A DNA stretch of 64,000 nucleotides from an uncultured Clostridium sp. (GCA_947647595.1 CANSKZ010000001.1:12912-76911), one strand, 5' to 3'. Shown: positions 58,217-58,533, counted from the first letter of the stretch. Notes: generated from the letters alone by a model not told the origin. Program-made: numbers and translations.

Positions 58217-58533
58217 TATATAACTTGCAAAAGTTTATATAAATATACACAAGACAAAAATTCAAGATACAAAAGATGTTAAAAATACAAAAGATAAAAA
58301 ATTTAAGGTACAAAAGATTTTTAAAATTAACTGCGGACTATTTTTATAGTCCCATTTGCAGACAAAAATTGTAAGTTTACAAAGGATTGTAACTACAAAA
58401 GAAAAATATATTTCGTTACAAATGATAAATTTGGAATTTACAAAAGAACACAAATTACAAAAGAATTTTGAAACTTATAGGTCGCCAAATTTTGACGACC
58501 TATAAAATTAATTAAATAGCGAGATGAGGAAAT

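Follow-up and report, generated by a model that had tools for sequence, protein, structure and literature searches.

Repeated RNA motifs that act as binding platforms are known. In the leaders bound by CsrA/RsmA, and in the CsrB, RsmY and RsmZ RNAs, a short single-stranded motif is present in many copies at an irregular spacing of ~10-30 nt. These sites are found in mRNA leaders, sometimes over the Shine-Dalgarno (SD) sequence, as well as in ncRNAs that are abundant and finish with a terminator, and their copy number evolves by duplication. Similarly, TRAP (on the Bacillus trp leader) and HutP (on UAG repeats) are multimeric proteins bound to short RNA repeats lying 5' of a terminator hairpin, and their binding decides termination. 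In the dcw cluster itself, the mraW RNA motif (RF01746), a candidate cis-regulatory RNA, is a conserved ncRNA element before rsmH (mraW), and the MraZ operator consists of direct repeats in the regulatory region near mraZ. The iterons of plasmids and phages are likewise several direct repeats of one short sequence. Another related arrangement is that of the cggR-gapA operon of Bacillus (RNase Y), where a regulator gene comes first and is followed by an untranslated stretch and a protective hairpin. Little is understood of how Firmicutes control the first dcw genes other than through MraZ, and division is believed to be gated by the level of FtsL. The array described here lies at this very point and shares something with each of these systems.

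The window, i.e., the whole stretch of DNA analysed, is of 64,000 nucleotides (64 kb) and comes from an uncultured Clostridium sp.; its MraZ homologues indicate a host akin to Candidatus Scatovivens, uncultured gut Clostridia. In the window, mraZ ends at 58216 and the ATG of rsmH is at 58534, which leaves a gap of 317 nt (58217-58533). A sequence-only reading of this DNA had reported a 317-bp mraZ-rsmH gap with six exact octamers, two variants and degenerate copies upstream, and all of these are present as placed. The six exact copies of TACAAAAG are all on the + strand, at 58268, 58286, 58309, 58394, 58439 and 58456. The variant copies are TACAAAGG at 58378 and TACAAATG at 58417. Successive copies are 18, 23, 69, 16, 23, 22 and 17 nt apart. 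The features of the region are given below.

57703-57731, + strand: putative sigma-A-type promoter-like site of mraZ, TTGCAA-17-TAAAAT (consensus scan)
57739-57764, + strand: candidate MraZ operator, AAGTGG / AAGTGT / AAGTGG direct repeats with a 10-bp period (read from the sequence)
57791-58216, + strand: mraZ coding sequence, 141 aa (open reading frame; homologues with PF02381, called MraZ by their sources)
58217-58244, + strand: TATATAACTT-GCAA-AAGTTTATATA box at the stop codon of mraZ, AU-rich and either a weak hairpin or a palindrome
58247-58317, + strand: array, part 1, with degenerate copies at ~58247 and ~58252 and exact TACAAAAGA at 58268-58276, 58286-58294 and 58309-58317
58331-58361, + strand: middle hairpin, CUGCGGACUAU-UUUU-AUAGUCC...GCAG (-12.4 kcal/mol, z -4.7)
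58376-58464, + strand: array, part 2, with the variants TACAAAGGA at 58378 and TACAAATGA at 58417 and exact copies at 58394-58402, 58439-58447 and 58456-58464
58475-58505, + strand: terminal hairpin, UUAUAGGUCG.CAA-AUU-UUG.CGACCUAUAA (-14.1 kcal/mol, z -6.5)
58526-58536, + strand: Shine-Dalgarno sequence GAGGA and rsmH ATG (read from the sequence; open reading frame)
58534-59470, + strand: rsmH (MraW methylase family; PF01795, E 9e-108), broken by a 1-nt insertion near 58629
59483-59491, + strand: lone extra copy, the TACAAAGA-type 9-mer TACAAAAGA, abutting the SD (AAAGGAGG) of the ftsL-like gene
59504-59989, + strand: ftsL-like gene, 161 aa, with one transmembrane segment (open reading frame; position after rsmH as in relatives)

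The repeats at 57739-57764 look like the published GTGG-type MraZ boxes. The promoter-like site of mraZ is located just upstream of them, and this layout matches that of one relative (L220), in which four GTGG boxes are placed as the repeats of the window. Since separate MraZ-type boxes are present there, the spacer motif is a different thing. The earlier remark that the motif is unlike that of MraZ thus holds, the actual boxes (AAGTGG/AAGTGT/AAGTGG) being upstream of mraZ.

The rsmH of the window is present as two overlapping ORFs of 38 aa and 287 aa. The insertion reads GGAACgATTC in the window vs GGAAC-TTTA/AATA/TCTG in relatives. The identical split recurs in at least four further independent assemblies of the species (L128, L129, L131, L132) and is, therefore, no artefact of assembly. 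A pseudogene, a read-through frameshift or a re-initiation at the internal ATG at 58607 could account for it. The next gene gave no family match in a Pfam search, one relative's gene at this position has a weak DivIC match, and we infer the name ftsL-like from synteny. After it, in the 59990-60140 region, the dcw unit of the window apparently stops. A long hairpin (60000-60039) is followed there by a strong promoter-like site, TTGCAA ... TGTGGTATAAT, a Fur-family gene (60138-60527) and rubrerythrin, in this order. Several relatives have a penicillin-binding protein gene after ftsL instead. On the upstream side, at 55119-57026, rpsF-ssb-rpsR (S6, SSB, S18) precedes a second SSB-domain protein of 218 aa (56370-57026, PF00436) that is missing in the near relative L134. 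In the same-species assemblies L128, L130, L131 and L133, other genes are called upstream instead of S6-SSB-S18.

On both strands of the 64-kb window, exact TACAAAAG is found 18 times vs 5.25 +/- 2.4 in dinucleotide shuffles, and none of the 100 shuffles reached 18 copies. The + strand outside the array has nine matches in 64 kb, i.e., ~0.03 expected per 197 nt, and six were observed. The density in the array is ~160x that elsewhere in the window, and a Poisson estimate puts the chance of six octamers in 197 nt at P ~1e-12. The octamer is, hence, not equally dense elsewhere within the 64-kb window, and a search of the window for a second array found none. Of the ten window matches to the 9-mer YACAAAAGA, the mraZ-rsmH spacer holds six and the following intergenic gap a seventh. 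Exact ACAAAAGA is present 19 times on the plus strand of the window and twice on the minus strand. The lone copy at 59483 has the context T[ACAAAAGA]AAGGAGG, and a copy adjoining the ftsL SD is also present in the nearest clade (L002, L003, L005, L134, L136, L025). The motif is in excess near SD sequences (12 vs ~3 expected), which may in part reflect the A-rich context of the SD.

The true unit of the array is Y-AC-N-AAAGA-W. In all 41 copies examined, neither the ACAAAAGA core nor the Y and W on its flanks vary, and the fourth base is variable (A, U, C or G) in looser copies such as TACTAAAGA, ACCAAAGA and TACGAAAGA. The commonest 8-mer in the spacers of 24 species is ACAAAAGA, with 163 copies and a presence in all 24. 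Loose copies have AAAGA in 209 of 209 cases, a figure set by the search definition, and 163 of these are exact ACAAAAGA. Through eight pairwise spacer alignments, it was observed that identity is 76% in the motif columns vs 52% in the remaining ones. Independent assemblies of the same species differ only at 58334, 58344 and 58358, all inside the middle hairpin (and at 58301 in one assembly), with no copy touched. The first seven related contigs have a long mraZ-rsmH gap as well (283-335 nt), and it is filled with the motif, while the linkers have diverged. The spacer is 54% A. A coding tandem repeat was not found, as the spacings are not multiples of three and the spacer ORFs are short, with none conserved. 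To judge from the sequences compared, the motif is under selection.

The start-to-start spacing of the copies has a sharp mode at 15 nt (38/185) that extends into a shoulder at 16-17. Another mode is at 21-24, and spacings below 14 are nearly absent. The 15-nt mode and the other peaks speak against helical (10.5-bp) phasing. The proposal of the sequence-only reading that the copies lie about two helical turns apart thus gives way to a cross-species mode of 15 nt. Among the dcw relatives, an array has 3 to 17 copies. The copy number is altered through local duplication (L085, L074), as is expected of a multivalent platform.

All relatives examined, over 35 species-level contigs whose MraZ is 33-93% identical, have the array in this spacer, and neither the spacer nor the repeats are missing from any of them. 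Neither of the two findings that, by the sequence-only reading, would have refuted it was thus obtained. Species-representative genomes were scanned for three ACAAAAGA copies 6-30 nt apart, which gave at least 120 matches; among those listed, ~25 are dcw clusters of uncultured Clostridia, with MraZ 42-74% identical to that of the window. A metagenome scan gave 10 further dcw loci among the at least 120 matches listed. All dcw arrays (35+ loci) run in the sense direction, and the order of copies in part 2 is common to the window, L134 and L136. The usual site of the array is between mraZ and rsmH. In more distant lineages (L047, L075, L246 and L085, the last with 17 copies), it is between rsmH and ftsL, and in L220 and L197 it is in the mraZ 5'UTR, with four GTGG MraZ boxes and a consensus promoter 5' of it. 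As the site shifts among loci, the array is tied to whatever is untranslated in the first kilobase of the dcw transcript and not to one gap. A separate observation concerns L134, which has ~250 nt extra (2927-3180) between the mraZ stop and the conserved box. This stretch holds two copies of a ~120-nt repeat, CTCGTGGAAAA...ACTCGAG...TATAAATAAC, of which L136 has a shorter version.

Outside dcw, the same irregular repeats are found in transcribed non-coding places of Bacillota, and they are sense to the flanking genes in 13 of 14 loci. In L076, a promoter (2759-2787) is followed by 6S RNA (2810-2995), four copies and an intrinsic terminator (3084-3118). The same 6S-array-terminator layout is present in L065 and L175 (12085-12400); these Lachnospiraceae contigs carry 4-7 copies, and in all three a SpoIID-domain gene lies downstream of the terminator. 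As they represent one syntenic locus type, they count as one case. The array is here either a repeat-bearing 3' extension of 6S RNA or, along with the terminator, a leader of the spoIID-like gene. In L021 and L109, the order is Clostridiales-1 RNA, array and terminator. The flagellin-fliS 3'UTR of L082 has ~23 degenerate copies in 500 nt between the fliS stop and a strong terminator. Clostridium massiliamazoniense (L087) has a small-RNA-like unit consisting of a promoter, ~170 nt, seven copies and a terminator. The order promoter-array-SD is seen in the 5'UTRs of ychF (L058), an ABC ATPase gene (L048) and a type III glutamine synthetase gene (L111), and in L121 the array continues into the start codon.

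Most of the non-dcw pattern matches, among those listed, are unrelated tandem or coding repeats. In phage lambda-O-like replication genes (L141, L149, L173, L183, L208, L213, L219, L221), three TACAAAAGA copies with a 15-nt period lie in an ORF and encode TKD/TKE linkers. These genes also carry 3-5 element-specific iterons, e.g. TTGGCAAAAATGCCAA, within the CDS before the TACAAAAGA copies. Judged by their 38-39-nt spans, most of the 63 viral matches (L260-L322) look like this class, a family of its own that has no relation to the arrays of Clostridia. Other look-alikes of the pattern scan are the aquatic 21-22-nt tandem repeat TATACAAAAGAGCCC..., the GACAAAA heptad repeats of Bacteroidota and assorted coding repeats. 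A 21-22-nt tandem unit, TATACAAAAGAGCCCNTATA(T)A, is present in up to 19+ copies in L152, L157-L159, L182, L199, L252 and similar metagenome contigs of 40-47% G+C; these arrays, too, are unrelated to those of Clostridia.

In the dcw spacer, a recurring order is seen: the stop-codon box, the array, a stable terminal hairpin and the rsmH ribosome-binding site. The box, TATATAACTT-NNNN-AAGTTTATATA, has invariant arms and a 4-nt centre that varies by species. It is present in nearly all mraZ-rsmH-type spacers (~20 related loci) and is specific to that array type. Its fold is weak (-4.7 kcal/mol, z -2.0), and by its sequence it could as well be a DNA palindrome for a dimeric protein as an RNA hairpin. 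The middle hairpin shows a compensatory change, GGACTAT/ATAGTCC vs GGGCTTT/AAAGCCC in L136. The variant copy at 58378 sits within a small hairpin, UUACAA-AGGA-UUGUAA, and dcw spacers now and then show a copy placed in this way. In the centroid fold of the window spacer, all copies are unpaired between three hairpins (z = -4.0).

The terminal hairpin had been noticed earlier and placed at 58487-58513. The hairpin does exist, but ten bases leftward, at 58475-58505, with the arms ATAGGTCG (58477-58484) and CGACCTAT (58496-58503). A hairpin is at the equivalent place in 22 of 25 species, with -14 to -22 kcal/mol. In 19 species, its consensus is ACAGYUGGUA...UACCARCUGU; 97.4% of the cells are paired, seven of ten pairs have compensatory double changes, and none of 500 shuffles matched this covariation. 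By an alignment-based count, there are ~10 G.U/U.G cells on the sense strand vs a single C.A, which speaks for a hairpin of the sense RNA rather than for a palindrome in the DNA. The stems of the window and L001 occupy the same position but are unrelated in sequence; thus, the structure is kept and not the sequence. In most species, the hairpin is 6-30 nt 3' of the array, with the rsmH ribosome-binding site 20-60 nt beyond it. In the window, the hairpin is without a U-tract, the next bases being AAAAUUAAUU, and a simple terminator scan does not flag it. Some relatives have a terminator-like tail (L093 ...GUUGUUUUUU, L016, L036), and others have a poor one. A role of the hairpin in termination is, for this window, uncertain.

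The strand, the transcribed contexts, the unpaired copies and the covarying hairpin together point to an element that acts at the RNA level; the orientation bias alone could equally come from direction-dependent DNA sites. The suggestion of the sequence-only reading that the spacer could host an RNA element thus finds backing in the bias for one strand, in the covariation of the hairpins and in the transcribed places that hold arrays elsewhere. Its other suggestion, of multimeric binding sites, is plausible as such, but these would most likely be on RNA and not on DNA. We put the chances at about even that the array is a multivalent single-stranded RNA platform which, along with the hairpin, recruits a sequence-specific factor and so sets the expression of rsmH and ftsL. 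In such a scheme, the spacer would be transcribed together with mraZ. Its eight copies of Y-AC-N-AAAGA-W, mostly UACAAAAGA, alternate with two small hairpins, and the stable terminal hairpin caps the array ~30 nt before the rsmH ribosome-binding site. Several molecules of one trans-acting factor, probably an RNA-binding protein, would gather on the dcw leader, this being the most economical mechanism for a multivalent 9-mer array that acts on RNA. The factor and the downstream hairpin may then set the level of rsmH-ftsL expression after mraZ via three routes. Transcription might read through or stop at the hairpin, the transcript might be processed into halves of differential stability, or the ribosome-binding site of ftsL might be occluded via the copy that abuts its SD.

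The main rival to such a platform is a pure RNase processing module, which we consider rather improbable. Here, a cis-acting processing or decay element would need no dedicated binder, and the A-rich AAAG|A units would be the entry sites of an endoribonuclease, e.g., RNase Y. A cut 5' of the terminal hairpin would leave the mraZ part short-lived and the rsmH-ftsL part protected by the hairpin, and the same cleavage would trim the 3' trailers of 6S and Clostridiales-1 RNA. RNase Y of staphylococci and streptococci prefers cutting after G in A/U-rich RNA, the array is unpaired and, in most species, has a stable hairpin 6-30 nt beyond it, and the layout of regulator gene, spacer and hairpin parallels that of the cggR-gapA operon of B. 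subtilis. Further, arrays are found directly after the mature 6S RNA end, where a trailer needs removal. However, for a 9-nt motif with an invariant C, G and flanking Y across distant Clostridia, we know of no RNase Y preference that approaches such specificity. Trailer trimming also does not explain the 5'UTR arrays that end at an SD or a start codon (L058, L121, window 59483). Double-stranded DNA sites for a multimeric transcription factor or nucleoid protein, e.g., of the AbrB/SpoVT/MraZ superfamily, are possible but fit the observed contexts poorly, and we regard them as unlikely; they correspond to the iteron/regulator proposal of the sequence-only reading. Such a protein would act as a roadblock, or the array would be an upstream activating region for an internal promoter, but no conserved promoter is present 3' of the array. 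The direct repeats do have a preferred spacing; nevertheless, the 15-bp mode amounts to 1.4 helical turns, with no 10.5-bp phasing. The stop-codon box is near-palindromic with conserved arms, and TACAAAAGAW agrees at 9/10 positions with an AbrB consensus, WAWWTTTWCAAAAAAW, reportedly an old in-vitro-selection result, but the motif G that deviates from it is invariant in 41/41 copies. While every array is upstream of some gene in matching orientation, this orientation is strictly sense (35+ dcw loci and 13/14 others), and arrays lie between an ncRNA gene and its own terminator and 3' of promoters in 5'UTRs, one of them overlapping a start codon. Moreover, the MraZ boxes lie elsewhere and differ in sequence, and there is neither a rep gene nor a plasmid context.

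That the copies pair with an RNA carrying UCUUUUGUR, the array being a sponge or a multi-seed regulator, is very improbable in our estimate. A repeated, fixed, single-stranded motif of 8-9 nt does resemble sponges and multi-seed small RNAs, and fusion to the abundant 6S RNA would make an effective sponge. Nevertheless, the complement is rare in the window (exact ACAAAAGA is 2 on minus vs 19 on plus), no complementary site is near the dcw ribosome-binding sites, and the 3' end of 16S rRNA gives no match by eye. The variable fourth position would also break an 8-bp duplex. The disfavoured reading, with hardly any weight in our estimate, is that of a neutral minisatellite or a functionless by-product of an A-rich spacer. 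The 54% A of the spacer and the shifts in copy number via local duplication (L085, L074) would suit it. It is contradicted by the presence of the same 9-mer in non-homologous loci and distant taxa despite differing linkers, by motif columns conserved above the spacer background, and by dinucleotide shuffles that never reach the observed count.

Several candidate readers of the array were rejected. MazF/EndoA cuts at UACAU, and the motif has a variable fourth base and A as the fifth. Rho rut sites do not fit, given a C/G ratio of ~1 and the lack of YC dimers, and Hfq (ARN)n leaves the invariant C, G and Y unexplained. Pairing with the 16S 3' tail was dismissed since no complementarity was seen, and the boxes of SpoIIID, Spo0A, WalR, PhoP, GlnR and CodY misfit in sequence or spacing. 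An internal promoter was also looked for in the spacer, where the consensus matches are only weak and non-conserved. KhpB has no defined sequence motif (PMC12408800), so KhpB as the reader is a guess only.

The platform reading can be extended. Y-AC-N-AAAGA arrays would then mark an unrecognised Csr-like global post-transcriptional system of Clostridia, with an abundant RNA-binding protein that reads the 9-mer; this we propose tentatively, as something possible rather than probable. Its mRNA targets would be the dcw head (rsmH, ftsL), ychF, the glutamine synthetase gene and flagellar transcripts, and the array-bearing ncRNAs, including the arrays 3' of 6S and Clostridiales-1 RNA, would be its sponges or reservoirs. 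If true, cell division in uncultured gut bacteria would be tied to growth-phase RNA signals. The array is, in any case, a strongly conserved and easily spotted RNA signature that dozens of uncultured gut Clostridia carry at the dcw control point. Should a factor bind to it, this would give a handle on a new global RNA-binding regulator in organisms where Hfq-/CsrA-type biology is largely unknown, and a simple sequence rule would predict the targets of the regulator from metagenomes. A processing-only role would still explain the uncoupling of mraZ expression from the rest of the operon.

A search of the literature on the motif, on mraZ/rsmH intergenic RNAs and on Clostridiales-1, 6S and KhpA/B gave no description of the array, and the motif appears undescribed; coverage was incomplete, and an earlier description is possible. 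In Rfam (all 4227 families, including RF01746), no meaningful match was found for window 57400-58900 at E up to 10, and 28 related loci scanned at the gathering score have no family over their arrays. RF01746 is a single conserved hairpin of Actinobacteria, whereas the array is repeat-based and belongs to Clostridia. MraZ operators consist of at least three GTGG(G/T)-type direct repeats in the dcw promoter region; here, the operator is AAGTGG/T with a 10-bp period upstream of mraZ, whereas the array is ACAAAAGA with a period of at least 15 and no GTGG, and both coexist in one locus. Iterons are of ~17-22 bp, helix-phased (~11/22 bp) and beside or in a rep gene; the array has a 9-10-nt unit, is unphased and lies inside an operon. 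No rep gene is near it, the neighbours being mraZ, rsmH and the ftsL-like gene, both in the window and at over 35 related loci. The idea of iterons put forward by the sequence-only reading, therefore, falls, given a chromosomal dcw cluster with no rep gene, a spacing mode of 15 nt and all copies in sense. In cggR-gapA, to our knowledge, there is no repeated sequence motif.

In its logic, the array resembles the leaders and sponges of Csr/Rsm or the TRAP-bound trp leader. TRAP/HutP sites are (G/U)AG triplets 2-4 nt apart around one ring, whereas the array consists of 9-mers at least 14 nt apart, 3 to 17+ in number. Many arrays are without a true terminator downstream, unlike TRAP-type attenuators, and no alternative antiterminator pairing with a hairpin arm was seen in the folds of the window spacer. 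The CsrA SELEX consensus, reportedly RUACARGGAUGU, shares a UACA...GAU frame with UACAAAAGAU. The core of Csr/Rsm sites is, however, A(N)GGA, and that of the array is AAAGA, with GGA in one of the eight window copies. Every testable defining feature of the Csr and TRAP families thus fails, there being no GGA core, no triplets and another spacing. Csr/Rsm sites are typically in hairpin loops, and the array copies are mostly in unpaired stretches. The array belongs to Clostridia, and its sponge-like copies, unlike the Csr/Rsm sponges, are fused to 6S and Clostridiales-1 RNA.
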